From positions 187,187 to 251,186 of the forward strand of contig CP011215.1 of assembly GCA_001029775.1 (NCBI GenBank): a stretch of 64,000 bases of DNA, written 5' to 3'. The position numbers and the translations under genes were made by a program. The notes below the pieces were generated by a model. That model was not told the DNA's origin, did no database searches, and saw only the letters and a program-made list of their open reading frames with translations. Of the stretch, positions 7,088-50,558 are shown one piece after another; within the stretch, counting starts at the first letter, position 1; every line of letters starts with the position of its first letter. Origin of the DNA: Candidatus Campbellbacteria bacterium GW2011_OD1_34_28 (GTDB lineage Bacteria; Patescibacteriota; Minisyncoccia; Phycocordibacterales; UBA12079).

Positions 7088-7180
7088 AATTGTAGGCGGT
7101 CCGACCGCCAAAAAAAGAATCGCTTTTTTTAATCTTTTTAGATTGGTGTATTGGAAATTTTTAAACTAAAATGACAAAAT

Positions 7181-34548: not shown

Positions 34549-35352
34549 ATGAATATAAAACCAAAAAAATCACTAGGACAAAACTTCTTAAAGACAAAAG
34601 AAATATTAGATATAGTAATTCAAACAGCTAATATAAAAGACAAAGATATTGTTTTAGAAATAGGTCCAGGGAAAGGAGCTCTCACTGAAAAACTTTTAGA
34701 AAAAGCAAAAGAAGTTATTGTTGTTGAAAAAGATAATCGCCTAATAGAATTTTTAAATGAAAAATTTGAAAGTGATGTAAAAACAAAAAAACTAAAAATA
34801 ATTGAAGGAGATATATTGGATATTGATATTTGTGAGGTGTTGGACACTTTACAATACAAAGTGGTTGCTAATATACCATATTACATAACAGGTCAAATAA
34901 TAAAGAAATTTTTATCTGAAGAAAAACAACCAAGTGATATAGTTTTGATGGTTCAAAAAGAGGTGGCAGAAAGAATTGTTGATAAACCGGAAAGTATATT
35001 ATCGCTAAGTGTAAAAGTATATGGAACACCTAAATATATAAAAACCGTTAAAGCAAAGCATTTTTCTCCTCAACCAAAGGTGGATTCGGCTATTTTGTTG
35101 ATAAAAAATATATCAAAAAATGTTTTTATTGAAAATAATATAAAAGAAAATGATTTTTTTGATCTTGTTAAAGCCGGTTTTTCTCACAAAAGAAAGTATT
35201 TATTAAACAATTTGGAGACAAATTGGATTTTAATGAATAAAAATAAAGAAAAATTAAAAGATATTTTGGAAAAATCTGATATATCTTTAAAAATTAGAGC
35301 AGAAAACCTTTCTTTGGAAGATTGGATAAATATATTGAAGCATAATTTTTAA
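34549..35352 (+). CDS. rsmA: 16S rRNA (adenine1518/1519-N6)-dimethyltransferase RsmA/KsgA.
   Basis: SLGQNFL motif, SAM-binding EIGPGKGALT, NIPYYIT. Confidence 0.9.
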   Translation: MNIKPKKSLGQNFLKTKEILDIVIQTANIKDKDIVLEIGPGKGALTEKLLEKAKEVIVVEKDNRLIEFLNEKFESDVKTKKLKIIEGDILDIDICEVLDTLQYKVVANIPYYITGQIIKKFLSEEKQPSDIVLMVQKEVAERIVDKPESILSLSVKVYGTPKYIKTVKAKHFSPQPKVDSAILLIKNISKNVFIENNIKENDFFDLVKAGFSHKRKYLLNNLETNWILMNKNKEKLKDILEKSDISLKIRAENLSLEDWINILKHNF

Positions 35353-35434: not shown

Positions 35435-36373
35435 ATGGACAAAAGTTGGCTCCCGAGTAAAAAATTAGTCCTATCTTTTAGTACCCTAGCAATTTTATTG
35501 TTGGGGAGTGTTGCTGTTTCTGAGTTGTTTAATAAGCAAAATGTTTATTTAGGAGAAAATAATAGTGTAAAGGTAGCAGAACTAAGAGGTAGTTTTTCAG
35601 AAAAAGACACGGATGGGGATGGTTTGATGGATTGGGAAGAGTCTCTTTGGAAAACAGATATAAATAACACCGATACAGACGGAGACGGAACAAATGATGG
35701 CGATGAAATACTACAAAAAAGAAATCCTGTTGTCGCTGGACCAGATGATTTATTGAAAGGAGAAATTTTAAGCGATGATAATTTTTTTAAGTACACTGAT
35801 GAAGAAAATTTGACCGAAACAGATAAATTATCAAGAGACCTTTTGGTGGGTTATTTGAGTATGAAAAAAAATGGTTCTTTTGAAGAAAATAAAACACAAT
35901 TTATTCAGTCTTTGTCACAAGATGTTACAGAAATATCAAAAGAAAAATCGGGCAAATTTTATACATCTACAGATATAAATATTATAGATAATAATAAAAA
36001 ATCTGATATTGAAACTTATAAGAAAAATTTTATAGGTATAATGATGTTTAGTAATGATCCAAGTCAAGATATTTCTATATTTAGAGATGCTTTACAAAAT
36101 GAAAGTAGTAAAGAAATATCAAAACTAGATTCAAGTATTTCTTTATATGAATATATGATGGAAAAACTTTTAGATATAAAAGTTCCTTCTTCTTTGCTAC
36201 AATCGCATTTAATAATAGTTAATTCTTTTGATGATATGATAGAGGGAACAAAAAAAATGAGAAATGTTATGATTGATCCTATTGGAGGTCTCTCAGGAAT
36301 AAATTTAAGAATTGCGTCAGAAGAAGTTTTTTTGGTTGGTTTAAATAAATTAAATGATATTTTAGAAAAATAA
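35435..36373 (+). CDS. Membrane-anchored protein with two dockerin/EF-hand-like Ca-binding repeats (DTDGDGLMDWEE / DTDGDGTNDGDE). First gene of the T4SS-like block.
   Basis: N-terminal TM helix; duplicated DxDxDGxxDxxE motif. Confidence 0.45.
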   Translation: MDKSWLPSKKLVLSFSTLAILLLGSVAVSELFNKQNVYLGENNSVKVAELRGSFSEKDTDGDGLMDWEESLWKTDINNTDTDGDGTNDGDEILQKRNPVVAGPDDLLKGEILSDDNFFKYTDEENLTETDKLSRDLLVGYLSMKKNGSFEENKTQFIQSLSQDVTEISKEKSGKFYTSTDINIIDNNKKSDIETYKKNFIGIMMFSNDPSQDISIFRDALQNESSKEISKLDSSISLYEYMMEKLLDIKVPSSLLQSHLIIVNSFDDMIEGTKKMRNVMIDPIGGLSGINLRIASEEVFLVGLNKLNDILEK

Positions 36374-36374
36374 A

Positions 36375-38612
36375 ATGTTTTCAAATAAATTTAAAAAAAC
36401 AACAGCTCTTTTTTTAACGGTAGTTATTATTTTTGTTTCCAGTTTTTCTTTAAAACCACAAAAAACAGAAGCCATTATTGGTTTTGGAGATACTGTTATT
36501 GAAGTAGGAGCGAATCTTTACGCTAACATGACAAAAATGGTAAAAGAAATAGCACTTGATACAATAGCTTGGGCAATTAAGGATAGAATAATTAGACAAA
36601 TAGTCAACTCAACTGTTACATGGATAAATAGTGGTTTTCAAGGCTCTCCGGCATATATAACAGATTTTGAAGGTTTTTTGACTGATGTAGGAGACGATAT
36701 AACGGGAATAATAATAAACGAAACAGGTTTAAACTTTCTTTGTGATCCATTTGCTTTAGATATTAGATTGGCTTTAGAAAATCAATTTATGGAAGGTGAT
36801 GATCTTGATTGTAAGTTGTCCGATGTCACCGACAATATTGGAGGTTCAATAGAGGATATTTCAAATACAATGGGAGAAAATTGGGATTGGGGTGCTTGGG
36901 TACAGATTACCCAAAACACAAGCAATAACCCTTTTTCTTCTTACATAGATGCAACAGTTAGAATTCAAAATACAATTTTTGAAAAAGAACAACAACAGTC
37001 AACCCAGATACAGTGGGCAGATGGTTATATATCAATTCCTTTTTGTGAAACAAATACGGTTGAAGAAAATGGAACTGTTCATTACGATGAACAGTGTAGA
37101 ATTGAAACACCAGGAAAACTTATTTCAGAATCTTTAAACGAACAACTAAGTTGGGGAGGAAAAGAGTTAATATCTGCCGATGAAATAAACGAAATTGTTT
37201 CAGCTTTGTTTGCACAACTAATTAATCAGGTATTTCAAGAAGGCCTTCGTAGTGTAAACGACGATGGATATATGGATGACATGGTGAATGATGATAGTGT
37301 GTGGGAAGGAAGCACTAGGGAAATAATAGGGCAAATTGAAAGAGATATAAAAGAAGAGCAAGCATATTTGGATGTTAAAAAAATGACACTAGAGTTGTTG
37401 TTGTCTACTAAAGAACTTTTGGAAACAATGAAGGAATTTTGTGCGGATGAAGAACTTAATGGTTGGATTAGTAATAAAATAATAACAAAAATTAATCCTT
37501 TGATTGAAAGGATTCAGGCGGACATAAATGTTTCACAAGGAATGATTGACCGTTTGTATGAAATCATTAATAAATTAAGAGCTCTTGTTGATGGAGATTC
37601 TTCAAATCCAGATCCAGATCCTCAGCCAGATCCAGACCCTCAACCAGACCCTTCTGCAAGTTATTCTTGTGAAAAAGTAATTGCACCTAGCTATACAGAC
37701 GGATTTTTCTCTTTGGCGTCATTTAAAAATGTATTATATGCAGGAGCCTTTGGATATGGTCTTGAAAATCAAAGCATGATGTTTGGTGTGGGAGGAGCTT
37801 TCCAACCTGGAATAAAAAATATAGGAGAAAGTGTTTGTGCAATGGAAGAATTTGATGGTTTTCTTTATGCAAATACAGAAAACAGTGGAAAGGTTTATCG
37901 TTCTCAAGACGGTAAAAATTGGGTCACTGTACACAGTTTGGGCCAACCAACAGGTTGTGCTATGGATGTTCACAATAACAACTTGTTTGTTGTTGGTGCA
38001 AATGCTTTTGCTGGATTAAGAAAGTCTGTTATTTATAGATTTACTGGTAAAGTAGGGTGGCAATCTGTATATAGTGACGATTTGTATATAAGAGATATTG
38101 TTTCTTACAAAGGTAGAATATATGCTTTTGGTATTGATAATAGTGGTCAAGGTTATGTTATAAGTTCTGATAATGGTGTTACGGATTGGAGAAAACAACA
38201 GGTGGACAGTCGTTTTTTTAGAGCAACTGTTGTAGATGATACTCTGTGGATAGGGTCTTCTATGAAATATAGTAAAAATAATAAATCTGGAATTTTCAAA
38301 TATAATGGAAATACCTTTGTAAATGTTTATAATACAAATATTTATGAACACATAACCTATGTTAAGGGTTGGGAAGGTGCTTTGTTTGCAGGAACAACAA
38401 AAGGTTTCAAAGTAAAAATGGATGGAACAAATGCAAAGGGTCCAACACAGCTTTTGGTTTCAGCAGACAATGGAACTTCTTGGAAGACAGCATGTACGGT
38501 TCAAGAAGAGGGTATTTGGGATATTATGGAAAACAACGGAAAATTATATATAGCTACGATGAGTTATAATAATGCTACGGGTGGTTCTGTTTATGAGGTA
38601 AAGAAAAAATAA
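36375..38612 (+). CDS. Large secreted/anchored protein (745 aa) with a PDPDPQPDPDPQPDP linker and a C-terminal beta-propeller-like repeat region.
   Basis: N-terminal hydrophobic anchor, low-complexity PD/PQ linker, and repetitive G/Y/W-rich C-terminal blades. Confidence 0.45.
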   Translation: MFSNKFKKTTALFLTVVIIFVSSFSLKPQKTEAIIGFGDTVIEVGANLYANMTKMVKEIALDTIAWAIKDRIIRQIVNSTVTWINSGFQGSPAYITDFEGFLTDVGDDITGIIINETGLNFLCDPFALDIRLALENQFMEGDDLDCKLSDVTDNIGGSIEDISNTMGENWDWGAWVQITQNTSNNPFSSYIDATVRIQNTIFEKEQQQSTQIQWADGYISIPFCETNTVEENGTVHYDEQCRIETPGKLISESLNEQLSWGGKELISADEINEIVSALFAQLINQVFQEGLRSVNDDGYMDDMVNDDSVWEGSTREIIGQIERDIKEEQAYLDVKKMTLELLLSTKELLETMKEFCADEELNGWISNKIITKINPLIERIQADINVSQGMIDRLYEIINKLRALVDGDSSNPDPDPQPDPDPQPDPSASYSCEKVIAPSYTDGFFSLASFKNVLYAGAFGYGLENQSMMFGVGGAFQPGIKNIGESVCAMEEFDGFLYANTENSGKVYRSQDGKNWVTVHSLGQPTGCAMDVHNNNLFVVGANAFAGLRKSVIYRFTGKVGWQSVYSDDLYIRDIVSYKGRIYAFGIDNSGQGYVISSDNGVTDWRKQQVDSRFFRATVVDDTLWIGSSMKYSKNNKSGIFKYNGNTFVNVYNTNIYEHITYVKGWEGALFAGTTKGFKVKMDGTNAKGPTQLLVSADNGTSWKTACTVQEEGIWDIMENNGKLYIATMSYNNATGGSVYEVKKK

Positions 38613-38615
38613 AAT

Positions 38616-39608
38616 ATGAAAAATATTTATAAATTTATTTTAATATTGGTTGTTGTAGTAGGAGTTTCATTTTATTTTGGAAACTCTCCTGCTGAAAACA
38701 TTTCGGCCGCGAACAATGAACATGCCGGAGATGTTAGTGGTTGTAGTGTTACAGCAACAACACTGACTGGCGCAAAGGAATATGGAGAAGATCAAGGTAG
38801 AACAAATGGATGTAGACCAACATTTTTCTTTGATATGTCTGGAGACGGATATTGTCCAGGAGGAAAATGTTCTGTTGATATAAGTTGTGAAGACGGTGAT
38901 GCCGAGACATACACATTTGATAATCCAGGTGTTCCTCCAGGGGAATGTCCTCCTGGTGCAAATTGGAATGGGGCGGTTGGAAATAGTCCTGGAAGATACC
39001 CTCTCGTTTACTGGGATTTGGAAGGATTTCTTTGGAAATCAAAAGGAAATACATATTGTAAATTGGTTGTCTATTTGCCACAAAAATTTGGAACAGGTGA
39101 ATGTGAGCCAGATTTTCAGGGGAGTCCAGCAAGCCCTGCAGATCCTGCAGAAACTTTAATGGATCTTGTTAATGAATGGAGAGATATTTCTGAAAAAATA
39201 CACAGATCGGGTGATTTAGCAGCAGCTCAGGATGAATATGATGAAATAAAAGCCGAAATGGATGCTATAAAAAAAGAAGCTCTTCAAATTGTACCAGAAG
39301 GAAGTTGTGACTATATTATTTACGGAGACGATCCTGGTTTTCATCACTACAATCCACATTCTTTTGATTCAGCAAAATCAGCAATTGTTTTATGTCCACT
39401 TTCACCAGAACTTGTTAGTTGTACGGGTTTTGTTCCTAATATAAATCCACTAACAGGCAAAATGTGGCCAGATAAAAATAGACAGATATTTATACAAGGA
39501 ACACCAAAAAGTGGTCCTTTGACGATAAATTGTTTGGGCAAAGATGGAGAAACTTATAGTTATAGAATTAATGATGGTAATACATACACAAACGGCGTGT
39601 GTCAGTAA
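38616..39608 (+). CDS. Secreted Cys-rich hypothetical protein.
   Basis: Signal/anchor helix; about 14 Cys spread through the mature part. Confidence 0.4.
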   Translation: MKNIYKFILILVVVVGVSFYFGNSPAENISAANNEHAGDVSGCSVTATTLTGAKEYGEDQGRTNGCRPTFFFDMSGDGYCPGGKCSVDISCEDGDAETYTFDNPGVPPGECPPGANWNGAVGNSPGRYPLVYWDLEGFLWKSKGNTYCKLVVYLPQKFGTGECEPDFQGSPASPADPAETLMDLVNEWRDISEKIHRSGDLAAAQDEYDEIKAEMDAIKKEALQIVPEGSCDYIIYGDDPGFHHYNPHSFDSAKSAIVLCPLSPELVSCTGFVPNINPLTGKMWPDKNRQIFIQGTPKSGPLTINCLGKDGETYSYRINDGNTYTNGVCQ

Positions 39609-39666
39609 AAGATAAAAGTTGCTTTTAAATATCTTTTTAGAAAGATGTTTAAATAAAAAATTATAA

Positions 39667-41691
39667 ATGGCGAAATTGTTAAAATTTAGAAAAATAATAT
39701 CTTTCTTTTTTGGAATGGTTGTTTTGTTCGGAGGTATTTTTTCTCCGGTTGGTTTTGATATTCAAAATGGAGGAAATCTAACAATAGATGTTGCAAGTGC
39801 TGCAAATCAAACCGGTACCAGTGTTTCTTGGGAAGATTTTATTGAAAGTGAAGGATATTCTTGTAATATAGCATCATGGAATTTCACTTTCGGCGGTTGT
39901 ATGGTTTTGGTACTAAAGGATGTATATGCGGTTGTTGCTTTTTTGTTGGTTATATTTGCAAAATTTTTTGATGTTCTTCTAATGTTTTCTATTAGTGATA
40001 AATTTTTAGACCAAGAATTTATTGGACCAGCATGGACGGCATTGAGGGATGCTGCCAATATGTTGTTTATTTTTCTGTTGGTAATTATTTCCATATCAAT
40101 AATACTGGATTATGGAAGTTTCAAATCAAAAGAATTGATAGTAAAAGTAATAATGATTGCAATTGCTATCAATTTTAGCTTGTTTGTTTCAAGGGTGGTC
40201 ATAGATGCGGGAAATATTTTCACGGTTGGTTTTTATGATGCGATAGGTGCAAAAGATATGGAAGATACATATATTGCAGGTATTATTCCAAAAGAAATTT
40301 CTAGTGGACTGATGTCTATGTTTAATCCAGTAGAGATGATGGATCAGGAGGCTTTTCATAAATGGGTGGAAGGTGAGGGAGATAAGACCGCTATTATGAT
40401 TGTTATTTTTTTGGTTGCTATTGCAATAGCTTTTTATACGGCGTATGTGTTTTTTATGGCTGGCTGGACATTTATTGGTAGGGTTATTTATCTTTGGATG
40501 TTGATGGTTCTTTCTCCTCTTGCTTTTATGTCTTATGCTATTCCTGGAATGGGATCGTATTTTACAAAATGGTGGCAAAAGTTATTGGATAAATCTTTTT
40601 GTGTAGTAGTATTTCTTTTTATCCTGTGGTTGTTGTTCTTAATAAATGATAATGGACTTTTTGCCTCAAATAATTTTGTTGAAGGTGATAATATTTTAGG
40701 ACAGATATTGGTAATTCTAATGAAAGCAATGATTGTTTTTGCTTTTATGAGAACAGCATTATCTGAATTAAAGAAAAAATGTGATGACGGTGTTATTGGG
40801 GATAGTATATTAAAAGGTGTGAAAGGAGCTGTTGGTTTGGCTGGTATTGCAACAGGAGGTGCTTTGGTGGGTGCAGGAGCAAAAGCATTGGGCGGTAATT
40901 TGATGAGAGGAACGGTTGGACGAGCTGCACAACGCGGTGCGGAATATATGGAAAAGAAAGGTGGGGGTACATCAACTATGGGTAAATTGGGATTGAAAAC
41001 ATTAAGAAATGTTGGAGATTCAAAATTCGGAATGGCAAAAGAAAGTTTCAAAGCCAGAGAAGATAGTAAAGTAAAAGATCATCATGCTTATGCAAATACT
41101 TTGTCAAAAGAAAAGAATATTACAGCAAACGAATTAGATGCCAAAGGAAAACCTGTAAGAGATGCACAGGGAAATATTAAGAAGACAAATATTAGTGCTC
41201 AGGATCAGTATTATAGAAATATTTCAAAATCAAAAATTTCTAATACCGTTGCAGCAACCGCTGGTGCGGCAACAGTTGCAACAGGAGGTGTTTTGGCACC
41301 TTTAACTGTTCCTCTAGCGGATTATATGAGAACTCGTGCAACCACTGGTGCAAAAGCAGCTGAACAACAAGGAAAGATAAGTAAATTAAATAAAGATAAA
41401 GAAATAGAGAGGGAAAAATTCAAACTTGAAATTGAGAAATTAAAAAATGAAGAACTTAGAGAAGCTGAAATTCATTTGCAAGAAGCAAAAGATGATTTGG
41501 AGAAAGCAAAATTAGCAAAACAACCAGAAAGTGCGCTAAGTATTTATAGGTCTGGTGTTGGAGATGCACAGGTTACTTTGTCAAAAGCTAATTCAGAAAT
41601 AAAAAAGAAAGAAGAAGAACTAAAAGAAAAATTGAAAAAGTATGATGAGGATATTAAGAAAGCGAGAGAGGATATGAAAAAAAATAAATAA
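39667..41691 (+). CDS. Polytopic membrane protein, VirB6/TrbL-like, with a Gly-rich segment and a long C-terminal coiled coil.
   Basis: At least 6 hydrophobic helices followed by GAVGLAGIATGGALVGAGAKALGG and a K/E-rich coiled coil. Assigned to VirB6 by topology and context only. Confidence 0.35.
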   Translation: MAKLLKFRKIISFFFGMVVLFGGIFSPVGFDIQNGGNLTIDVASAANQTGTSVSWEDFIESEGYSCNIASWNFTFGGCMVLVLKDVYAVVAFLLVIFAKFFDVLLMFSISDKFLDQEFIGPAWTALRDAANMLFIFLLVIISISIILDYGSFKSKELIVKVIMIAIAINFSLFVSRVVIDAGNIFTVGFYDAIGAKDMEDTYIAGIIPKEISSGLMSMFNPVEMMDQEAFHKWVEGEGDKTAIMIVIFLVAIAIAFYTAYVFFMAGWTFIGRVIYLWMLMVLSPLAFMSYAIPGMGSYFTKWWQKLLDKSFCVVVFLFILWLLFLINDNGLFASNNFVEGDNILGQILVILMKAMIVFAFMRTALSELKKKCDDGVIGDSILKGVKGAVGLAGIATGGALVGAGAKALGGNLMRGTVGRAAQRGAEYMEKKGGGTSTMGKLGLKTLRNVGDSKFGMAKESFKAREDSKVKDHHAYANTLSKEKNITANELDAKGKPVRDAQGNIKKTNISAQDQYYRNISKSKISNTVAATAGAATVATGGVLAPLTVPLADYMRTRATTGAKAAEQQGKISKLNKDKEIEREKFKLEIEKLKNEELREAEIHLQEAKDDLEKAKLAKQPESALSIYRSGVGDAQVTLSKANSEIKKKEEELKEKLKKYDEDIKKAREDMKKNK

Positions 41692-41701
41692 TTTATAAAC
41701 T

Positions 41702-42349
41702 ATGGAATATACACCAGAACAAATTGAAAATAGACTAAATTCGCTTCCTGCTGATATCAAGCAGGCGATGTCAGAGGTTGATACAACCACAGCTATTTTA
41801 AATGTGGGAAAGAAAAATGGACTTCATGTAGATCAGATGGGAGAGCTTCTCTATTGTGTTGGCCTTGTGATGCTCGGCCTCGAACATTCTCAACGCTTTG
41901 CAGACATTATTATTGAAAAGGTGGGCGTTTCCCCTGAACAAGCAGAAGTGATAACCGCCGATATAAACAACGAGGTTTTCTTAAAATTGAGAGAGTCTAT
42001 TAAAAAAATTCACGAACAGCACTCTTCTCAAAATACAGAAATAGATAATAGGCCTTTGGCAGAGAAAATGAATCCTTTTGAACAAAAACACGAAGGAGAG
42101 GTGTTGGATAAAGACAAAATTTTGGCAGAGATAGAAAACCCTGAAAATATTATAGAAAACAAGGTTTCAACACCTTCTGTAAATATAAACGTTCAAATTC
42201 CTGTGATTGAGCCTCCTATGCCCGCAGAACCTTTTAAAATGAATATTATGGAGAGTAAATTGGGTGGAGTAACAAAATTACCTATGCAAGAGAAAAAGGT
42301 AGAAGAATCAGGAGTAAAGATAGATCCGTATAGAGAACCAATTGAGTAG
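41702..42349 (+). CDS. Hypothetical protein in the T4SS-like block.
   Basis: ORF only. Confidence 0.35.
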   Translation: MEYTPEQIENRLNSLPADIKQAMSEVDTTTAILNVGKKNGLHVDQMGELLYCVGLVMLGLEHSQRFADIIIEKVGVSPEQAEVITADINNEVFLKLRESIKKIHEQHSSQNTEIDNRPLAEKMNPFEQKHEGEVLDKDKILAEIENPENIIENKVSTPSVNINVQIPVIEPPMPAEPFKMNIMESKLGGVTKLPMQEKKVEESGVKIDPYREPIE

Positions 42350-42378
42350 AAAGTCGAAAGTTTGTAAAGTTATAAAGT

Positions 42379-42723
42379 ATGAAAATAGAAAGATTTGAAG
42401 ATATAATATCATGGCAAAAAGCTGAAAAATTAACCCTAGATATTTATAACATTTTTAGAAATATTAATGATTTTGGTTTTAAAAATCAAATACAAAGATC
42501 TTCTGTTTCTATAATGAATAATATTGCCGAAGGGTTTGAAAGAAAGGGAAATAATGAATTAAAGTATTTTTTGTTCGTTGCAAAAGGATCATGTGCTGAA
42601 ACCAGATCAATGTTGCACTTATCATTACAGTTGAAATATTTAAAAGAAGATCAATATAAAAAATTAAACGAATTATCAATAGAAATTTCAAAATTATTAT
42701 CAGGTTTAATCAAAACTTTATAA
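42379..42723 (+). CDS. Four-helix-bundle protein, 23S-rRNA-intervening-sequence / DGR Avd-like family (paralog 1).
   Basis: ~115 aa, motifs IAEGFERKGNNELKYFLFVAKGSCAETRSML typical of the TIGR02436-type bundle. Confidence 0.6.
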   Translation: MKIERFEDIISWQKAEKLTLDIYNIFRNINDFGFKNQIQRSSVSIMNNIAEGFERKGNNELKYFLFVAKGSCAETRSMLHLSLQLKYLKEDQYKKLNELSIEISKLLSGLIKTL

Positions 42724-42755
42724 ACTTTAAACTTTATAAACTTTAAACTAATATC

Positions 42756-43181
42756 GTGCATTTCGAAGTACCACAATTTATAGATATAGAAGACAAAATA
42801 GTTGGACCCCTAACTATCAAGCAGTTTATTTTCGTTGCCGGAGGAGCAGGAATTTGTTTTGCTATCTATTTTTTTCTTAAAAGTCTATTTTTCACTCTTC
42901 TTCTAGGGGCTCCTTTTATAGCTCTTTCTCTTTCTCTTGCTTTTTATAAACCAAGCGGAAGACCTTTTATTTTAGTTTTGGAATCAGCCTTTTGGTTTTT
43001 CTTGAAAAGTAAATTATATATTTGGAAAAAAGAACCAAAGAAAGTTCAGAAAGGAGTAGAAAAAGAACCCGATTTGGTGGCTCAGATGAATGTACCAAAA
43101 TTGTCAGATAGTAAATTATCAGATTTGGGTTGGAGTTTGGATATAAAAGACAAATTGGAAGATAATATGAATAATAATTAA
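42756..43181 (+). CDS. Small two-TM membrane protein, VirB3/PrgI-like.
   Basis: Two adjacent hydrophobic helices in a 141 aa protein, two genes upstream of the VirB4 ATPase. Confidence 0.35.
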   Translation: MHFEVPQFIDIEDKIVGPLTIKQFIFVAGGAGICFAIYFFLKSLFFTLLLGAPFIALSLSLAFYKPSGRPFILVLESAFWFFLKSKLYIWKKEPKKVQKGVEKEPDLVAQMNVPKLSDSKLSDLGWSLDIKDKLEDNMNNN

Positions 43182-43207
43182 TAAAAATTCAAAATTGAAA
43201 TCTCAAA

Positions 43208-43579
43208 ATGCAAAATGAAAAAGAAAAATTTAAAAATGAATTTAAGAAAAGATTGTATACATGGACACTAAGATTAATAAAATTTATTGATAAATTAAAT
43301 AAAGATTCTGTCTGTAATGTAATAGGAAAACAATTATTGAGAAGCGGAACAAGTATTTTATCAAACTATGTTGAAGCGGGATCTGCTAGTTCGAAGAGAG
43401 ATTACATTAATTTTTTTACATATTCTTTAAAATCATCCAATGAATCGAAGGTGTGGTTGTCTTTGTTGAGGGATACAAACAAGGGGGATAAAAAAGAATT
43501 AGAGTGGATGTTATGTGAATTACAAGAAATATCAAACATCATTGCATCTGGTATAATAACAATGAAAGGGAAAAGATAA
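43208..43579 (+). CDS. Four-helix-bundle protein, Avd-like / 23S rRNA IVS family (paralog 2).
   Basis: GKQLLRSGTSILSNYVEAGSASSKRDYINFFTYSLKSSNESKVWL, same family signature as paralog 1. Confidence 0.6.
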   Translation: MQNEKEKFKNEFKKRLYTWTLRLIKFIDKLNKDSVCNVIGKQLLRSGTSILSNYVEAGSASSKRDYINFFTYSLKSSNESKVWLSLLRDTNKGDKKELEWMLCELQEISNIIASGIITMKGKR

Positions 43580-43635
43580 TTTTTATTTTTAAACTGTCAT
43601 TTTTAATTTTGAGATTTTAATTTTGAATTTGAAAC

Positions 43636-44265
43636 ATGGAAAAAACATCAGCAACACAAGGATTTGTTCCTATCAAAGAAATAAGAGATGGTGTAATTGT
43701 TCTTAAAGATAATTCTCTAAGGGCTATTTTGATGGTTTCTTCTTTAAATTTTTCTTTAAAATCCTCAGATGAACAAATAGCAATTATTTATCAATTTCAA
43801 AATTTTTTAAACTCTCTTGATTTTTCTACTCAGATTTATATTCAATCAAGAAAGTTGGATATTAGGCCTTATATCTCAGTTATGGAGGAAAAATACAAAG
43901 CTCAAACAAATGATTTGATGAAAATTCAAACAAGAGAATATATAGAATTTATAAAGAAATTTACCGAGAGTGTAAATATAATGACGAAAAACTTCTTTAT
44001 AATTGTACCTTACACACCTTCTTTTCTAGGAAACTCCTCGAAAGGCCCCCTCGGTCTTGGTGGAGGGAAAAAAAATACACAAATTTTGGAAAACGATTCT
44101 TTTGAAGAGAGTCGTTCACAGTTGGAACAAAGAGCCAATGTCATAGAACAAGGGTTATCAAGGTCTGGTTTAAGGGTTGCCAGATTAGGAACTGAAGAAT
44201 CGGTAGAATTACTTTATAAAATATTTAATCCAGGAGAATCAGAAAAACCAATTCAACTAAATTAA
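43636..44265 (+). CDS. VirB4/TraC/CagE-family N-terminal domain, encoded as a separate ORF that ends 4 nt before the ATPase ORF.
   Basis: 209 aa + 604 aa equals a typical VirB4 length. The N-terminal GFVPIKEIRDGVIVLKDNSLRAIL resembles the VirB4 N-terminal motif. Confidence 0.45.
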   Translation: MEKTSATQGFVPIKEIRDGVIVLKDNSLRAILMVSSLNFSLKSSDEQIAIIYQFQNFLNSLDFSTQIYIQSRKLDIRPYISVMEEKYKAQTNDLMKIQTREYIEFIKKFTESVNIMTKNFFIIVPYTPSFLGNSSKGPLGLGGGKKNTQILENDSFEESRSQLEQRANVIEQGLSRSGLRVARLGTEESVELLYKIFNPGESEKPIQLN

Positions 44266-44269
44266 AAAT

Positions 44270-46084
44270 ATGAGCATTTTTGATAAAATTTTAGGAAAAA
44301 AAGACGAGGGTCCGGGTATCACACCCACATTGCCACAGGAAATTTATGAGACTGGTGTTTTGGAATTGCAAGATATTATTGCTCCTTCTGCTCTAAAGAT
44401 TTCTCCTAACAATATTAACCTCGGTGGTAAAATAATGAAAACATTTTTTGTTATTTCTTATCCAAGATTTTTATCTGACAATTGGTTTTCTTCTGTAATT
44501 AATTTAGATAAAGAATTTGATGTATCTATTTTTATTCATCCGATTGAGACAGAAAAAGTATTGCGACAATTTCAAAAGAAAGTAGCCGAGGTTCAAAGCC
44601 AAATAATGACAAGAGAAGAAAAGGGATTTGTTAGAGACCCGGGTTTAGACGCTGCTTATCAAAATCTCGAAGATTTGCGTGACAAATTGCAACAGGCACA
44701 GGAAAAATTGTTTGATGTCGGTGTTTATATTTCTATTTATGGAAAAGATGATGACGAATTGAACAAACTTGAATCAGAGATTCGTTCTATTTTGGAATCA
44801 AAACTTATCTACATTAGACCATCTCTTTTCCAACAAGAACAAGGTTTTAGAAGTATTTTGCCATTAGGAAATGATCTTTTAAATGTTCACTCAAAGCTTA
44901 ATTCCGCCCCTCTTTCCAGTATTTTTCCTTTCGTTTCTTTTGACCTAACATCTGATAAAGGAATTTTGTATGGAGTAAACAGACACAACTCAAGTTTGAT
45001 AATTTTTGATCGTTTTTCTTTAGCAAACTACAATTCAGTTACTTTTGCAAAATCTGGAGCAGGAAAATCTTATGCAATCAAATTGGAAGTTTTGAGATCT
45101 CTAATGTTTGGTGTAGAGGTTATGGTAATAGACCCTGAAAGAGAATTTGAATATTTGTCCGAGGCAGTAGGGGGAAGATATTTTAATATTTCTTTGTCGT
45201 CCGAACACCATATCAATCCTTTTGATTTACCAGCTCCAAGACCAGACGAATCACCTTCAAATGTTTTGCGATCACATATTGTCAATTTGGTAGGGCTTTT
45301 TAGAATTATGTTGGGAGGGTTATCACCAGAAGAAGATGCAATAGTGGACAGAGCTATTTCGGAAACTTATGCCTTGAGAGATATTACACCCGATTCCGAT
45401 TTTACAAACATAGAACCACCTCTTTTGTCAGACTTTGAACTTGTTTTGGCGGGAATGGAAGGAGCCGATGTTTTGGTTCAAAAAATATCAAAATATACAA
45501 AAGGTACATGGTCTGGATTTTTGAACAAACCAACCAATGTGGATATAAATAGTAAATTTATTGTATTCTCTATTAGAGACATGGAAGATGAGTTGCGACC
45601 GGTGGCAATGTATATTATTACCCACTATATTTGGAATGCGGTTAGAAAAGAATTGAAAAAAAGATTGTTTGTTATCGACGAAGCATGGCAAATGATGAAA
45701 TCAGAAGACGCTGCCTCTTTCTTGTTTAGTATGGCAAAAAGAGGAAGAAAATATTATTTAGGATTGGCAACAATTACCCAAGACATCAACGACTTTCTTC
45801 CTTCTCCGTATGGACTGCCCATTATCACCAACTCTTCTATTCAGGTGTTGTTGAAACAGTCTCCTACAACAATAGACGCTGTTCAAAAAACATTTAACCT
45901 TACAGATGAGGAAAAATATCTTCTTTTGGAAGCGGGTGTAGGGGAGGGAATTTTCTTTGCTGGACTAAAACACGTAGCAATAAAAATAATTGCATCATAT
46001 ACCGAAGATCAGATTATTACATCGGATCCATCACAGGTTTTGGCCATTAAACAAGCAAAAAGAGATCTGGAAGCATCTGAATAA
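44270..46084 (+). CDS. virB4: VirB4/TrbE/TraC-family type IV secretion ATPase (C-terminal ATPase portion).
   Basis: Walker A FAKSGAGKSY, VMVIDPEREF, Walker B LFVIDEAWQMM, and conserved C-terminal motifs. Confidence 0.75.
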   Translation: MSIFDKILGKKDEGPGITPTLPQEIYETGVLELQDIIAPSALKISPNNINLGGKIMKTFFVISYPRFLSDNWFSSVINLDKEFDVSIFIHPIETEKVLRQFQKKVAEVQSQIMTREEKGFVRDPGLDAAYQNLEDLRDKLQQAQEKLFDVGVYISIYGKDDDELNKLESEIRSILESKLIYIRPSLFQQEQGFRSILPLGNDLLNVHSKLNSAPLSSIFPFVSFDLTSDKGILYGVNRHNSSLIIFDRFSLANYNSVTFAKSGAGKSYAIKLEVLRSLMFGVEVMVIDPEREFEYLSEAVGGRYFNISLSSEHHINPFDLPAPRPDESPSNVLRSHIVNLVGLFRIMLGGLSPEEDAIVDRAISETYALRDITPDSDFTNIEPPLLSDFELVLAGMEGADVLVQKISKYTKGTWSGFLNKPTNVDINSKFIVFSIRDMEDELRPVAMYIITHYIWNAVRKELKKRLFVIDEAWQMMKSEDAASFLFSMAKRGRKYYLGLATITQDINDFLPSPYGLPIITNSSIQVLLKQSPTTIDAVQKTFNLTDEEKYLLLEAGVGEGIFFAGLKHVAIKIIASYTEDQIITSDPSQVLAIKQAKRDLEASE

Positions 46085-46108
46085 TTTATGTTAATATAAA
46101 TATAATAA

Positions 46109-47176
46109 ATGAAGAAAGTATTTAATAAAAAAATAAAAGTTTATTTGGGGGTACTTTTCGTTTTTTCTTTTGTTTTTGTTTCTTTTGCTGATGCTGTTGA
46201 AACAGATATAGAAAGTTATGTTTTTGGTGGTAGTGGTATTGGTAGTTTACCAGAATTATTAACTATGAAGCTAAGTAATAGAATACCCAGTCCAAACGAA
46301 GAAATTACAATATCTTTGGAAAATTATTCAATAGATTTGTATACATCACAGATTTCTTGGTATAAAAATGATTCTTTGGTAGAGAGAGGTCTTGGAAAAA
46401 AAGATTTTACTTTTAATGTGGGAGGTTTGGGTACATCTGACACAATTACCGCAGTTGTTTTAACAAAAAATGGTGAACAAATTTCAACTAGCAAAACTTT
46501 TTCTCCTGCAGAGGTTGATATTGTGTGGGAGGGAGATGTTTATACACCACCTTTTTATAAAGGAAAGGCACTCGTCTCACATCGTTCTGTTGTAAAAATA
46601 GTCGCAATTCCAAATTTTATTGGTTCTAACAAATCAAAAATAAGTGACGATAAATTGATGTATGTTTGGAAAAAGAATGGAAATATTATAAATGGATCAC
46701 AAGGGATGGGCAAAAATATGTTGTATTATGATATGGAGAAAAATTTTAGAGACAGTGTTTTGACAGTCGAGGTTTCTAATAGCGACGATTCTATAAAAGC
46801 AAAATCTTCTGTCAGTATAAAAGAGATCAAACCAAAGATAGTGTTTTATGAAAACGACCCTCTTATGGGAATAGTTTTTGAAAAAGCATTAAATAAAAAA
46901 ACCGACTTGTTAAAAGAAGAAATAACTGTAACCGCGCAACCTTTCTTTTTTTCAAAAGATGATATAAAAAATGAGAAACTTGAATATAAATGGAAACTTA
47001 ACAATAAAATATTGGATGATGTCGTTGGAGATTTTATAACCTTGAAAAAAGGTGAAGACAAAGGTACCGCAAATTTAAGTCTGAATATACAAGATAAAAA
47101 TAGAGTAATGCAGTCAGCGACAAACATTTTAAATATCAATTTTGATGATGAGAGAGCATCGTTATTTAATTTTTAA
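46109..47176 (+). CDS. Secreted hypothetical protein (T4SS-like block).
   Basis: Signal peptide; repetitive beta-rich sequence. Confidence 0.4.
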   Translation: MKKVFNKKIKVYLGVLFVFSFVFVSFADAVETDIESYVFGGSGIGSLPELLTMKLSNRIPSPNEEITISLENYSIDLYTSQISWYKNDSLVERGLGKKDFTFNVGGLGTSDTITAVVLTKNGEQISTSKTFSPAEVDIVWEGDVYTPPFYKGKALVSHRSVVKIVAIPNFIGSNKSKISDDKLMYVWKKNGNIINGSQGMGKNMLYYDMEKNFRDSVLTVEVSNSDDSIKAKSSVSIKEIKPKIVFYENDPLMGIVFEKALNKKTDLLKEEITVTAQPFFFSKDDIKNEKLEYKWKLNNKILDDVVGDFITLKKGEDKGTANLSLNIQDKNRVMQSATNILNINFDDERASLFNF

Positions 47177-47179
47177 TAT

Positions 47180-47593
47180 ATGATAAATTTTTTAAAAAAT
47201 AAAAAAATACAAATCGTTTCATCAGCTGCTTTTCTTTTTTTTGTTTCTTTCTCTGTTTCTTTCTCTGCAGTTGAATATAAGATGCTTGAAAAATTGCCCT
47301 ACATCAATCCAAATGGGGAAGCTGTAGATCTTACAACATATCTTTCAGGAGCGTTTAGACTGGCTTTTGGTGTTGCTATTCTTTTAGCGGTATTTCAACT
47401 ATCATTTGCTGGTTTCAAATATCTAACAGAAGAATCTTTTACTGGAAAAACAAATGCAAAAAGTAAAATCAACAACGCGATTTTTGGACTTGTCCTTATT
47501 TTTGTTTCTTATTTGTTGTTGAATTTTATCAACCCAGATTTGGTGAATATTCAATTTGAAATTCCTAAGGTAGGTAAGTCTAATGGGTCATGA
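47180..47593 (+). CDS. VirB2/TrbC-like pilin candidate.
   Basis: 137 aa, a cleavable-looking leader, then two hydrophobic helices (AFRLAFGVAILLAVFQLSFAGF and IFGLVLIFVSYLLLNFI), the typical VirB2 topology. Confidence 0.4.
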   Translation: MINFLKNKKIQIVSSAAFLFFVSFSVSFSAVEYKMLEKLPYINPNGEAVDLTTYLSGAFRLAFGVAILLAVFQLSFAGFKYLTEESFTGKTNAKSKINNAIFGLVLIFVSYLLLNFINPDLVNIQFEIPKVGKSNGS

Positions 47594-47631
47594 GCAAGTG
47601 GAGGTTGGTAAAAATATAACAATAATATAAT

Positions 47632-48906
47632 TTGGTTTATTTTATGACAAAAAAGATTTTAATAATATTGATAATAATATTGATACTCGCAGTTGTTGGA
47701 GTGTTTATTTTTTATTTTGCATTTTCAAAAAATAATCCAAATTCTGATCAATTTGATGGATCTCCGTTGGGATTTATTTTTGGTAATTTTGGTGGAGGAG
47801 GAAATAATTTAGATGAAGATGTAGACAATGGACCAGATATTACAATTGGAGAAGAAAAACCACTTTTGAGATTAAGAAAAATTTCTGAAACTCCAACCGC
47901 TGGTTTTGTTGTTTTCCAAAACGAAGACAAAGAAGTGACTGTCAGATATACAGAAAGATCAACGGGGCATATTTTTGAAGCAAGCACAGTTCGTCCAACA
48001 ATAAAAAGAATCTCAAATACAACTATTCCAAGGATTTATGAAGCGGTTTGGGTAAATAGTGAAGAATCTGTAATGAGATATTTAGATGAAGATAATAATA
48101 TAAAAAGTTTTTATGCAAAAATAATAAAAAATGATGCAGACAGCACAGAAGAAGGAAAAACAGAAGGTGTATTTTTGAGAGATAACATAAAAGATGTCTT
48201 TTTGTATGGAAAAAAGATCTTAAATATTTATAACGAAGCAGGATATTCTCAGTTTGTGATTTCCGATGTTGATGGAAGTAATTCTTTTGAAATATACGAA
48301 TACCCTCTTGAAGGATGGTTGATTCAGTCTCCAAAAACAGGAATGTTTGCTCTAACAATAAAGCCAACATATGATAATTTTGGATATTTGTATTTTTTGG
48401 ATATAAATTCAAAAGAAAAAACAAAAATTTTATCTAAAGTTGTTGGATTAACGACGCTGACAAGTGGTGATGCAAACAAGGTATTGTTTGCAGAAAAGAT
48501 AAAACTTTCTTCTTATGATGTTGATAATAAAGAAACAAAAAAGATGGATGTTGATACACTTCCTGAAAAATGCGCGTGGTTTAATGATTCTATAAGTGTT
48601 ATTTGTGGTATTCCAAAAAATACATTGGGTGGAAAGTATCCAGACGATTGGTATCAGGGGATATATTCGTTTTCTGACGATATTTATATATTGGATGTAG
48701 ATGGAGGATTTTCTGAGTTGATTATTTCACCAGAAGAATTTTCTGGAGAAAATATTGATCTAATAAAACCAATTTTTAGCTCGGATGAAAAGTTTTTGTT
48801 CTTTATAAACAAAAAAGATCAATCGTTATGGAGTTTGGAGATATCACCAGAAATTAAAATTAAAACAGAAAATATAGAGACAGCAACAACAACGAGTGAA
48901 AACTAA
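47632..48906 (+). CDS. N-terminally anchored extracytoplasmic hypothetical protein (last gene of the block).
   Basis: One N-terminal TM helix; no family recognised. Confidence 0.4.
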   Translation: MVYFMTKKILIILIIILILAVVGVFIFYFAFSKNNPNSDQFDGSPLGFIFGNFGGGGNNLDEDVDNGPDITIGEEKPLLRLRKISETPTAGFVVFQNEDKEVTVRYTERSTGHIFEASTVRPTIKRISNTTIPRIYEAVWVNSEESVMRYLDEDNNIKSFYAKIIKNDADSTEEGKTEGVFLRDNIKDVFLYGKKILNIYNEAGYSQFVISDVDGSNSFEIYEYPLEGWLIQSPKTGMFALTIKPTYDNFGYLYFLDINSKEKTKILSKVVGLTTLTSGDANKVLFAEKIKLSSYDVDNKETKKMDVDTLPEKCAWFNDSISVICGIPKNTLGGKYPDDWYQGIYSFSDDIYILDVDGGFSELIISPEEFSGENIDLIKPIFSSDEKFLFFINKKDQSLWSLEISPEIKIKTENIETATTTSEN

Positions 48907-48964
48907 AAAAATATTGAAACAAATTTAAAAACTAAAAAAAGCGGGTAATCCCGCTTTTTTTAAA

Positions 48965-50228: not shown

Positions 50229-50558
50229 TCAAAAATATTTTTCGATGATATTTTGAATATCTTTTTCTGTTTCTTGAAAATTTATATTCTCACCTTCTTT
50301 TTTTAAAAAGAAAATAATAGAAACTCCGTCGGGAATATTTTCTAGAGAGTTTCTTATAATAGAGTAGACCCTTCTTTTTAAAAAGTGTCTTTTTATTGAT
50401 CCTTTGATTATTTTTTTAGATACAGCAAACGCAAATTTTTTTTCAGAATTGTCTGTCTTTAATATTTTTATATTAAAATAATTAGAATTTTTAGATGCAC
50501 CATTTTTAAAAACGATATCAAATTCTTCTTTGGTGAGTCTGTTTTTTTTATTTAACAT
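50229..50558 (-). CDS. rnpA: Ribonuclease P protein component.
   Basis: 109 aa basic protein immediately downstream of rpmH; RNR-like motif IKRHFLKRRV. Confidence 0.8.
   Translation of the reverse strand: MLNKKNRLTKEEFDIVFKNGASKNSNYFNIKILKTDNSEKKFAFAVSKKIIKGSIKRHFLKRRVYSIIRNSLENIPDGVSIIFFLKKEGENINFQETEKDIQNIIEKYF

Follow-up and report, generated by a model that had tools for sequence, protein, structure and literature searches.

Relaxase-less, pilin-bearing type IV secretion systems (T4SSs) near dnaA have been described in Patescibacteria (Wang 2023, PMC10633639; Quinonero-Coronel 2025, PMC12102498; a 2025 review, PMC12857230). In the Paceibacteria arrangement, an MPF-FATA-related VirB4, TrsD, PrgI/VirB3, VirB6, and a VirB2-like pilin are clustered by dnaA, dnaN, rnpA, and ksgA, with neither a relaxase nor a nearby T4CP (PMC12102498). 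The Gram-positive-like T4SS of the epibiotic CPR bacterium Southlakia epibionticum (SEML1_0006-0019) also lies by the origin and carries pilins, and it is likewise devoid of a coupling protein and a relaxase. In this organism, both the T4SS and the pilins proved essential, whereas comEC is dispensable (PMC10633639). The role of the T4SS has been described as unknown, with import suggested (PMC11665869), and tubular structures where the cell meets its host, together with feeding on host RNA, have been reported (bioRxiv 10.64898/2026.06.21.733656).

We analyzed a 13-gene block in a 64,000-nt stretch of DNA (the window) from Candidatus Campbellbacteria bacterium GW2011_OD1_34_28. The locus is almost certainly a chromosomal relaxase-less T4SS of Patescibacteria (CPR). 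It is a real and well-conserved copy of the system already known from the three studies cited first, and not a new one; an earlier reading made from the sequence alone (the sequence-only reading), in which the accessory proteins appeared undescribed, was incomplete on this point. The locus shows no essential difference from the published Paceibacteria arrangement (PMC12102498), but this copy has one pilin gene instead of an array, two IVP cassettes, a Cys-rich gene confined to its lineage, and a second gene product with a fused propeller, and it has no small transmembrane (TM) gene. The S. epibionticum system, which belongs to Saccharimonadia, differs in its six-pilin array and in the peptidase/lysozyme genes downstream of virB4; moreover, its essentiality was established by Tn-seq, whereas the Campbellbacteria locus is known here from sequence.

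Organization and conservation of the locus

ORF calls on the window recovered all 13 of the co-oriented plus-strand genes reported earlier (35435–48906), and every ORF was intact. The genes are packed back to back as described, but the intergenic gaps measured 1–58 nt rather than 2–60 nt. The GC content of the block is in line with that of its surroundings. The block adjoins oriC, between ksgA on the upstream side and jag-yidC-rnpA-dnaA on the downstream side. No terminator-like site was found on the plus strand in the intergenic regions within the block. A palindromic, unstranded hairpin with a GC stem and A-run and T-run flanks (48932–48963) probably serves as a bidirectional terminator for both the T4SS operon and the convergent jag gene. 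A Xer-like integrase gene is located 16 kb off, amid housekeeping genes (18763–19665).

We compared the synteny of the block in related CPR genomes. The order ksgA-g1-g2-VirB6-g5-PrgI-TrsD-VirB4-g11-pilin-g13-(jag/yidC/rnpA)-dnaA was conserved across Paceibacteria in 80 related loci (g1 to g13 denote genes by their position in the block), and the site between ksgA and jag-yidC-rnpA-dnaA was fixed in 80 genomes across several candidate phyla. The arrangement recurs in 80 related loci, far more than chance would give. The conserved core amounts to ten genes here. A gene for a small protein with 3–4 TM helices, which follows virB4 in most relatives, belongs to the core in at least 51 of the 80 but is missing from the Campbellbacteria GW2011_OD1_34_28 copy. 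VirB4 showed 75–82% identity in the 80 loci. The median identities were 76% for VirB4, 63% for TrsD, 60% for DnaA, and 55% for UvrD, and those of the exposed proteins were 26–36%. The cytoplasmic motor is thus more constrained than DnaA, and the surface-exposed parts diverge fast.

Motor and membrane core

The product of 44270–46084 (plus strand, as are all genes below) is a VirB4-family ATPase of the CD1110/MPF-FATA type, the motor of the system. It matched NCBIfam NF045971 (CD1110 family) with an E-value of 5.9e-107 and 358.8 bits against a curated cutoff of 325, as well as Pfam P-loop_TraG (E 9.2e-25), and it carries Walker A (FAKSGAGKSY) and Walker B (LFVIDEAWQMM) motifs. These results confirm the VirB4 assignment of the sequence-only reading. 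The nearest plasmid relatives of this VirB4 are found in Firmicutes and Actinobacteria (29–35% identity).

The gene directly upstream (43636–44265) had been left without a family in a component list whose named VirB families were otherwise upheld. It encodes a TrsD-like protein, which is a separately encoded VirB4 N-terminal domain: the product matched positions 101–233 of NF045975 (E 9e-13), positions 5–118 of NF045971 (E 4.7e-9), and TrsD NF041427 (E 3.5e-5), and its precomputed assignment is PF26593 TraC-like. The TrsD-like gene is an ORF of its own in 79 of the 80 related loci, and in four of them (L002, L013, L021, and L058) other genes sit between it and virB4.

The three membrane components proposed earlier were also substantiated, and hydropathy agreed with the topologies given for them. 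The two-TM protein encoded at 42756–43181, formerly called VirB3-like, is a PrgI family protein (VirB3 equivalent) that exceeds the PF12666 cutoff (E 4.7e-13), and its gene is present in 76 of the 80 loci. The VirB2-like pilin encoded at 47180–47593, which has a signal peptide and two TM helices, scored 28.9 bits against T4SS_pilin PF18895 (cutoff 26.6) and matched the Mbov_0395 pilin-like family with an E-value of 2.3e-4. Its core is conserved in alignment A8, in which the pilins of relatives often have long C-terminal extensions. In regards to the extended VirB6-like polytopic protein (39667–41691), about 7–8 TM helices are followed by a hydrophilic coiled-coil C-terminal tail of about 300 aa. 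Its own sequence gave no direct Pfam match, but 6 of 41 orthologues matched TrbL/VirB6 PF04610, and a profile of the membrane region searched against the whole PDB had the VirB6 protein TrwI of R388 as its sole match (7o3v_F, E 2.6e-4). A weak match to the Mbov_0396 ICE TM protein was also obtained (E 0.015).

Surface, secreted, and cytoplasmic accessory proteins

The locus had been described as made mostly of homology-less proteins. This description does not hold: orthologues of g1, g2, g5, g11, and g13 are present in 40–73 of the 80 related loci. These five proteins lack annotation rather than homologues, and only the Cys-rich g3 is lineage-specific.

The g1 product (35435–36373) is a membrane-anchored protein with one N-terminal TM helix at residues 11–29 by hydropathy, two thrombospondin-type-3 Ca-binding repeats at about residues 55–95, and a C-terminal domain of about 200 aa without a recognised fold. 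The match to TSP3_bac PF18884 was under the cutoff (E 3.9e-4), and the TSP3 regions of CglD/MtsD matched with an E-value of 7.9e-6. A g1 orthologue occupies the equivalent slot in 40 of the 80 loci (22–37% identity). The g11 product (46109–47176) is anchored N-terminally and carries three Ig-like beta-sandwich repeats, with three copies of the motif [IL]xYxWxxN spaced by about 100 aa (residues 82, 183, and 291). Members of its family, which has more than 205 homologues and occurs in 73 of the 80 loci, matched Ig_3, BiPBP_C, PKD_3, and Invasin_D4. The g13 product (47632–48906), with orthologues in 59 of the 80 loci, is anchored at its N-terminus, with one strong TM helix at residues 9–27 by hydropathy; its ectodomain may be a TolB-like beta-propeller, as weakly suggested by a TolB profile match (E 0.0063) and by one orthologue that matched PD40.

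The g2 product (36375–38612) is a secreted or anchored protein. AF2 models predicted a conserved Cys-containing helical N-domain (residues 30–310), a coiled-coil hairpin (314–406), and, after a PDPDPQ linker, a lineage-specific 7-bladed beta-propeller (430–745) that matched LGI1 EPTP, BamB, and Fbw7. The N-domain was modeled with medium confidence and gave no match in a fold search. Its family comprises 6,480 clusters at 50% identity; the relatives are typically 480–560 aa without a propeller, and about 7% of the family has a DUF4141/TrbJ-like N-terminus. The Cys-rich exported g3 product (38616–39608), which is outside the conserved set, has a single N-terminal TM helix or signal peptide by hydropathy and no match in Pfam and NCBIfam searches; the sole trace of it among relatives is a fragment at a contig edge in L001, the nearest of them. 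The cytoplasmic g5 product (41702–42349) has no TM helix and consists of an N-domain of about 105 aa that a disordered linker joins to an invariant DPYREP peptide at the C-terminus; D208, Y210, and E212 of this peptide are invariant in alignment A7. This motif was found in 57 loci and only in the gene at the g5 position; family and PDB searches with g5 gave no match.

IVP cassettes

The two four-helix-bundle paralogs noted earlier are both present, but they are insertions and not parts of the T4SS. Cassette a (42347–42738) contains an ORF (42379–42723) for a 23S-rRNA-IVS-protein of the four-helix-bundle type (PF05635, E 5.5e-32; TIGR02436, E 5.6e-31) flanked by 25-nt inverted repeats (42347–42371 and 42714–42738) that are 84% complementary (flank duplex z −4.0), with a closing stem in the MFE and centroid folds. 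Cassette b (43185–43630) contains a second such ORF (43208–43579; PF05635, E 2.1e-16) flanked by 51-nt inverted repeats (43185–43235 and 43580–43630) that are 80% complementary (flank duplex z −6.3); its closing stem is about 32 bp in the MFE and centroid folds, and the whole-fold z is −3.5. Such 23S_rRNA_IVP/TIGR02436 cassettes occur in only 14 of the 80 related loci at varying intergenic positions and are therefore not T4SS components.

DNA-transfer genes and related systems

HMM searches for relaxase, VirD4, VirB11, VirB9, and VirB10 families gave no match in the 13-gene block, as the sequence-only reading had held, or among the 20 largest ORFs in the remainder of the window. The equivalent blocks of the 80 related loci likewise contain neither a relaxase nor a coupling ATPase, and a Walker A motif is missing from all 52 of their unassigned ORFs. 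No component resembling VirB8 was detected. Other parts of the genome could still encode a relaxase or a coupling protein; VirD4 homologues lie far from virB4 in many Patescibacteria (PMC12102498). Together with the synteny, the HMM matches bear out the core of the earlier reading, namely that this CPR genome carries a T4SS-like locus devoid of genes for conjugative DNA processing.

The system descends from monoderm conjugation machinery of the MPF-FATA, CD1110/Prg type, with loss of the coupling ATPase and the relaxase. The clostridial CTn2/CD1110-type T4SS (C. botulinum pCDC3875) and pCF10 Prg share the CD1110-family VirB4 (29–35% identity), PrgI, and VirB6 with this locus, and the backbone order VirB6-PrgI-x-VirB4 is common to pCDC3875. 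They differ in having VirD4 (CD1115), a MOB relaxase, and an SLT/CHAP cell-wall hydrolase (pCDC3875 carries VirD4 and an SLT hydrolase besides the shared backbone), in lacking a VirB2-like pilin, in their unsplit VirB4, and in being mobile rather than chromosome-fixed. The Mycoplasma/Spiroplasma ICE module is likewise a minimal T4SS of wall-less or monoderm cells with a pilin-like protein, and Mbov_0397 VirB4 was matched with an E-value of 2.5e-82; this match and those to Mbov_0395 and Mbov_0396, weak to moderate overall, were all below equivalog cutoffs, and these mobile ICEs differ in their DDE transposase and DNA-processing genes.

H. pylori ComB, a diderm VirB2-4/6-10 set, and crenarchaeal Ced are T4SS-derived DNA importers without a relaxase or coupling protein. 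The locus resembled CedB in the P-loop only, with a match (E 1.2e-9) that scored 37 bits where the cutoff is 700. ComB and Ced provide a precedent for inward transport by a T4CP-less machine (in part from PMC12102498).

Proposed function

A non-conjugative role of the locus in host interaction is highly probable, and a Patescibacteria T4SS for host interaction is likely to be the best explanation overall. The function proposed in the sequence-only reading (host attachment, delivery, or uptake, and not conjugation) agrees with the published proposals (PMC10633639, PMC12102498, and PMC12857230). In the mechanism that we propose, a VirB4/TrsD hexamer would dock onto PrgI and VirB6 in the membrane and pull out the two-TM pilin, which would polymerise into a tube. 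The Ig stalk of g11, the propeller of g13, and the Ca-binding g1 would scaffold this tube through the cell wall, secreted g2 may work at the distal or host-contact end, and cytoplasmic g5 may dock via its invariant DPYREP tail; the roles of these five proteins are assigned solely from position, topology, and fold class.

The same machine may instead work outward and deliver effector proteins or toxins to the interior or the surface of the host cell, with g2 or g3 as possible substrates. Effector delivery is a speculation cited in PMC10633639 and PMC11665869, Ptl and Brucella VirB export proteins without a T4CP (PMC12102498), and the lineage-specific g3 and propeller-tailed g2 resemble variable surface or cargo proteins. 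We nevertheless consider this unlikely, as no coupling protein for recruiting cytoplasmic substrates was found in this block or in those of the relatives, no recognisable toxin domain was found, and the Sec-type N-termini of g2 and g3 would bring them outside a monoderm cell without any T4SS. It is more improbable still that the locus translocates nothing and only makes a pilus or surface fibre by which the cell adheres to its host. The pilin, the anchored Ig-like, propeller, and Ca-binding surface proteins, and the quick divergence of the exposed parts would suit such a fibre, but Patescibacteria already adhere and move by means of type IV pili (PMC12857230), the very strong conservation of the ATPase suits a continuously working motor, and the long C-terminal extensions of relatives' pilins would be hard to pack in a classical pilus. 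A conjugative element or ICE remnant, either decaying or still able to mobilise DNA through a relaxase and T4CP encoded at a distance, is very improbable: VirB4, PrgI, and VirB6 are conjugation families, the nearest plasmid relatives are conjugative Firmicutes elements, and a Xer-like integrase is encoded in the window, but that gene is distant and among housekeeping genes, the chromosomal site is fixed, VirB4 is conserved above DnaA, no ORF is broken, GC content is unremarkable, and no block holds a relaxase or T4CP.

For the host-interaction T4SS, the most likely use of the conduit would be to take up macromolecules of the host (nucleic acids) upon contact, given the literature and the lack, at the locus, of a coupling protein that would recruit substrates; our preference for import over export is tentative. 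Patescibacteria probably use the T4SS to contact and exploit host cells.

Locus layout and neighbourhood

The block consists of 13 plus-strand ORFs (35435-48906), found at exactly the positions that the sequence-only reading had reported and separated by gaps of 1-58 nt. The sole terminator-like hairpin outside coding sequence is a GC-rich palindrome (48932-48963) in the gap that separates the last gene of the block from jag, which is convergent with it; this layout fits one operon. A scan for promoters gave 79 where 81 were expected and was uninformative. The GC content of the block is 26-35%, inside the overall range of the window (26-39%).

The window is a housekeeping chromosomal region adjoining the replication origin. 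A gene for a UvrD-type helicase (32335-34308) and ksgA (34549-35352, encoding KsgA) lie upstream of the block. Downstream, jag, yidC and rnpA (50229-50558, encoding RnpA) are on the minus strand and are followed by dnaA (50996-52351, encoding DnaA) and a putative dnaN (52503-53600). The DnaN assignment is based on the position after dnaA and on synteny; the product is 37-61% identical to that of the syntenic post-dnaA gene in 45-47 related loci.

Three further features of the neighbourhood were recorded. A minus-strand gene for a LysM + M23 peptidase (30876-32030) is located upstream of uvrD, 3.4 kb upstream of the block, and at least 11 related loci have a syntenic copy on the same side; the gene may encode a VirB1-type wall hydrolase that has no counterpart in the operon, or an unrelated division enzyme. 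[quoted passage not shown] The region 849-9113 contains two branched-chain-type ABC permease genes, three paralogous periplasmic-binding-protein genes and three TrmB-family regulator genes.

Motor proteins

The product of 44270-46084 matched the CD1110-family model NF045971 above its cutoff (E 5.9e-107, 358.8 bits; cutoff 325) and P-loop_TraG (E 9.2e-25), and the Walker motifs noticed earlier were found in it. It is classified from these matches as a VirB4 ATPase of the CD1110 family, related to the MPF-FATA class. The closest plasmid-borne VirB4 proteins are from Firmicutes and Actinobacteria and are 29-35% identical, and the identical protein occurs on at least 24 public contigs.

In regard to the preceding gene (43636-44265), the product matched VirB4 models in their N-terminal region only (E 9e-13 and 4.7e-9) and the TrsD family (E 3.5e-5). 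These matches show that VirB4 is split over two genes, with a TrsD-like VirB4 N-domain encoded as its own gene adjoining virB4. TrsD is a separate ORF in 79 of the 80 related loci described below, and in four loci another gene lies between TrsD and VirB4. This distribution rules out a frameshift as the cause of the split, which is ancestral.

Membrane platform and pilin

The product of 42756-43181 matched PF12666 (PrgI) above the Pfam cutoff (E 4.7e-13) and is assigned to the PrgI family of VirB3-like proteins. The product of 39667-41691 gave no match of its own in the Pfam search; TrbL/VirB6 (PF04610) was matched by 6 of 41 orthologues, and a profile of its membrane region, searched against the whole PDB sequence set, had a sole match, TrwI (the VirB6 of R388; E 2.6e-4). 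On this profile evidence we accept it as an extended VirB6. The product of 47180-47593 matched the T4SS pilin model PF18895 (28.9 bits, cutoff 26.6), which identifies it by homology as a VirB2-like pilin encoded near virB4. The VirB6, VirB3 and VirB2 assignments of the sequence-only reading, which had been based on topology and gene context, are thus backed by HMM evidence, as is its VirB4 assignment; 43636-44265, which it had left unassigned, is added as a fifth component.

The pilin of the window is a minimal form of 137 aa. Many relatives encode VirB2-like pilins with a variable C-terminal extension of 100-270 aa (L009:13190-14104, L028:12922-13770, L023:3980-5203, L017:13314-14381 and others, where L numbers denote related VirB4 loci). 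By eye, the C-terminus of two of the extended pilins shows an H..D ... HWH pattern similar to that of M15/VanY peptidases, a resemblance that the PDB sequence search did not confirm. At least 51 of the 80 relatives also carry, between virB4 and the downstream gene g11, a gene whose product has 113-174 aa and 3-4 TM helices (for example, L006:11855-12256, L026:11839-12252 and L014:11862-12281). This gene is absent in the window and in L001, the closest relative; both have only a 24-nt gap at this site (46084-46109 in the window), and no homologue occurs across the 64 kb of the window.

Missing conjugation machinery

Family searches of the block and of the 20 largest other ORFs of the window gave no match to relaxase, VirD4/TcpA, VirB11, VirB9 or VirB10, in agreement with the absences inferred earlier, and no MOB family was matched in the searched ORFs of the 64-kb window. 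No VirB1-like cell-wall hydrolase was found among the 13 block genes. In the equivalent blocks of the 80 related genomes, a Walker A motif was found in 0 of 52 unassigned ORFs of at least 150 aa. Plasmid pCDC3875 of C. botulinum has the same backbone order as the window (VirB6-PrgI-x-VirB4), but it carries VirD4, adjoining VirB6, and an SLT hydrolase, whereas the window block is without both. Likewise, a T4CP, a relaxase and an in-operon hydrolase, which characterise conjugative MPF-FATA T4SSs of the CTn2, pCF10 and pGO1 types, are all lacking in the window locus.

Conservation among relatives

A VirB4 scan using one genome per species gave 80 loci whose VirB4 proteins are 75-82% identical to that of the window. 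All were from MAGs of Paceibacteria/Parcubacteria (Campbell-, Zambryski-, Taylor-, Wolfe- and Adlerbacteria). The gene order recurs throughout these 80 loci: uvrD-ksgA-g1-g2-VirB6-g5-PrgI-TrsD-VirB4-g11-pilin-g13, then jag/yidC/rnpA and dnaA-dnaN, where g1, g2, g5, g11 and g13 are accessory genes of the block. In L001, whose VirB4 is 82% identical, TrsD precedes PrgI and yidC-jag is on the plus strand (L001:3564-5101 and 9947-11162), so that this locus is locally rearranged compared with the window and the other 79 loci.

The median identities were 76% for VirB4, 63% for TrsD, 60% for DnaA, 55% for UvrD, 50% for both PrgI and DnaN, 36% for the pilin, 31% for g13, 30.5% for g11, 28.5% for g5, 28% for g1 and 26% for VirB6. 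The comparison of VirB4 with DnaA indicates that the motor is under more constraint than the replication initiator. A constrained motor combined with fast-evolving exposed parts rules out a decaying mobile element, and this pattern of sequence divergence fits a machine that faces another organism.

Accessory proteins

The accessory proteins had been described as homology-less. This does not hold, since the family of g2 (36375-38612) alone comprises 6,480 clusters at 50% identity (E<=1e-3). Only the Cys-rich g3 (38616-39608) proved to be lineage-specific.

The N-domain of g2 contains the motifs WINSGFQGSPAF and ADEINEIV and four conserved cysteines, and relatives of g2 are usually 480-560 aa long and consist of this domain and a coiled coil. 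Structure prediction, which the sequence-only reading had proposed for g2, was successful for one part of the protein: the tail was confidently modelled as a 7-bladed beta-propeller. The N-domain gave no confident model; in two AF2 runs (28 and 119 sequences), pLDDT stayed under 50-70 for much of this domain (residues 30-310). Among 27 hits, the propeller tail is confined to the window protein and the four full-length homologues nearest to it (46-76% identical). No PDB relative of the N-domain was found by fold or sequence search.

A DUF4141 match on one distant g2 homologue was the origin of a possible relation to TrbJ, the P-type VirB5. A DUF4141 N-terminus is present in about 8 of 120 family members, and six of these eight match the TrbJ model PRK13874, at model positions 4-50 only (E 2.6e-7 to 1.7e-4), which strengthened the lead. 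The g2 protein of the window itself does not match a TrbJ-type N-terminus, its N-domain matched neither VirB5 nor TraC in PDB profile searches or fold searches, and hhalign of the N-domain profile against R751 TrbJ returned a probability of 0.09. We rejected a VirB5/TrbJ identity of g2 on the hhalign result and the empty PDB profile searches, and the likeness to VirB5 is a weak lead.

The g1 product (35435-36373) is anchored and carries Ca-binding repeats of the thrombospondin-type-3 kind. Searches of Pfam and the PDB with g11 (46109-47176) and g13 (47632-48906) gave weak Ig, TolB and PD40 signals. The g11 product is predicted to be an anchored protein with three Ig-like repeats, and g13 probably encodes an anchored protein with a TolB-like propeller, although the latter assignment is weak. 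A deposited Candidatus Campbellbacteria protein is 100% identical to g11. Both are candidates for a bitopic VirB8, but their signals appear Ig-like and propeller-like, respectively, rather than NTF2-like as in the PrgL/TraM/TcpC type. The g5 product (41702-42349) is cytoplasmic, has no match in Pfam or the PDB, and has an invariant DPYREP peptide as its C-terminus (42323-42343). When every ORF in the window and in the 80 loci is considered, this motif is restricted to the gene at the g5 position, in 57 loci, and the tail could be a docking peptide.

Intervening-sequence protein cassettes

The two four-helix-bundle genes at 42379-42723 (IVPa) and 43208-43579 (IVPb) had been read as paralogous components of the locus. 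Their products matched PF05635 with E values of 5.5e-32 and 2.1e-16, respectively, and TIGR02436 was matched at E 5.6e-31. By these profiles they belong to the 23S rRNA intervening-sequence protein family, although they show no pairwise BLAST similarity to each other. IVP ORFs were found in only 14 of the 80 related loci and at varying intergenic positions, which places them outside the T4SS parts list. Examples in relatives are L001:4260-4604, L022:7842-8213, L022:8792-9178, L026:8927-9301, L066:8521-8886, L012:8542-8904 and L060:8400-8777. The window contains no rRNA, and its IVP genes lie between protein-coding T4SS genes, not inside a 23S rRNA gene.

IVPa is bracketed by a 25-nt inverted repeat and IVPb by one of 51 nt; these repeats form the closing stems of the cassettes (42347-42738 and 43185-43630) in both the MFE and centroid predicted RNA folds. 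The z score for flank complementarity was -6.3 for IVPb and a borderline -3.99 for IVPa. Of the 14 IVP cassettes tested in relatives, where the flank stem reached up to -47 kcal/mol, 7 scored below -4, and none of the control flanks of PrgI and TrsD fell below -1.6. The cassettes are thus built like rRNA intervening sequences but are placed in an mRNA operon. IVP may be a mobile cassette that is excisable by RNase III. Should the stems be RNase III sites, a selfish cassette could in this way persist in an essential operon without harming it.

At 42713-42744, two perfect tandem copies of the 16-mer AAACTTTATAAACTTT make up the 3' arm of the first cassette. At the same intergenic sites of relatives, other small selfish-looking genes (L051:6470-6730, L056:8772-9026 and L003:5310-5840) were recognised by eye from the sequences as GIY-YIG nuclease-like ORFs and an ORF6N/KilA-N-like ORF. 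The operon therefore appears to be tolerant of insertions between genes. A reading of the IVP genes as Avd of a diversity-generating retroelement (DGR) was rejected for now, because the Avd model matched only at E 0.012 and no reverse-transcriptase family was matched among the block genes, the immediate flanking genes and the 20 largest other ORFs.

Comparison with described systems and possible function

A survey of 2,474 virB4 genes in Patescibacteria described a set of VirB4 related to MPF-FATA, TrsD, PrgI/VirB3, VirB6 and VirB2-like pilins, in which most clusters are without a relaxase, a T4CP is rarely nearby, and Paceibacteria clusters are located near dnaA, dnaN, rnpA and ksgA (Quinonero-Coronel et al. 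2025, PMC12102498). The window has exactly the same set at the same chromosomal site and agrees with the described system in every testable feature. It is therefore a system already known and not a new kind, and the core of the earlier interpretation stands while several of its details do not. A homologous cluster of S. epibionticum, which lacks a coupling protein and a relaxase, and its pilins were essential for epibiotic growth by Tn-seq, a requirement demonstrated in that species alone (Wang et al. 2023, PMC10633639). Reviews regard the role as open and discuss effector export or nucleic-acid import (PMC12857230, PMC11665869), and a 2026 preprint describes host-interface tubular structures and host-RNA feeding, to which it links PNPase and VirB4 in the phylum (bioRxiv 10.64898/2026.06.21.733656).

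From the parts list, topologies, synteny and constraint pattern established here, we infer a machine in which the VirB4/TrsD motor, on a PrgI-VirB6 platform, would assemble the pilin into a tube. The g11, g13 and g1 proteins would support the tube across the wall, g2 would sit at its distal end, and g5 would dock in the cytoplasm. Patescibacteria of this kind are unable to make nucleotides, and the system has no coupling protein for cytoplasmic substrates; for these reasons we tentatively favour contact-dependent uptake of host macromolecules, a possible function, over effector export and over adhesion only. A further reason is that the ComEC pathway was dispensable in the only case tested (PMC10633639). 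Effector export, one of the two roles discussed in the reviews, seems somewhat unlikely, since cytoplasmic substrates would have to be exported without a coupling protein to recruit them. That the machine serves adhesion only is quite improbable. Conjugation, including an ICE or a conjugation remnant, is highly unlikely in view of the fixed synteny, the strong conservation and the absence of T4CP and relaxase in the 80 loci.

A more specific form of the uptake reading, which we consider doubtful, is that g1 (Ca-binding), the g2 family (vestigial TrbJ/VirB5-like N-terminus), g5 (DPYREP tail), g11 (Ig stalk) and g13 (propeller) are a Paceibacteria-specific module that replaced VirB5, VirB8 and the coupling protein, so that what was once a machine for conjugation now imports nucleic acids from the host in a contact-dependent way. 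In such a machine, g2 would be a pilus-tip or host-binding protein and g5 a cytoplasmic adaptor on VirB4/TrsD.

The analysis adds the defined conserved core of ten genes, five of whose families are without annotation, the tail motif of g5 and the hairpin-bracketed IVP cassettes. For the epibiotic lifestyle of Patescibacteria, a very large bacterial group, few machines are known to be essential; their T4SS is one, and the window provides a clean Paceibacteria reference copy of it. The ten-gene parts list and the constraint ranking, with the motor above DnaA and the surface parts evolving fast, could guide structural and genetic work.
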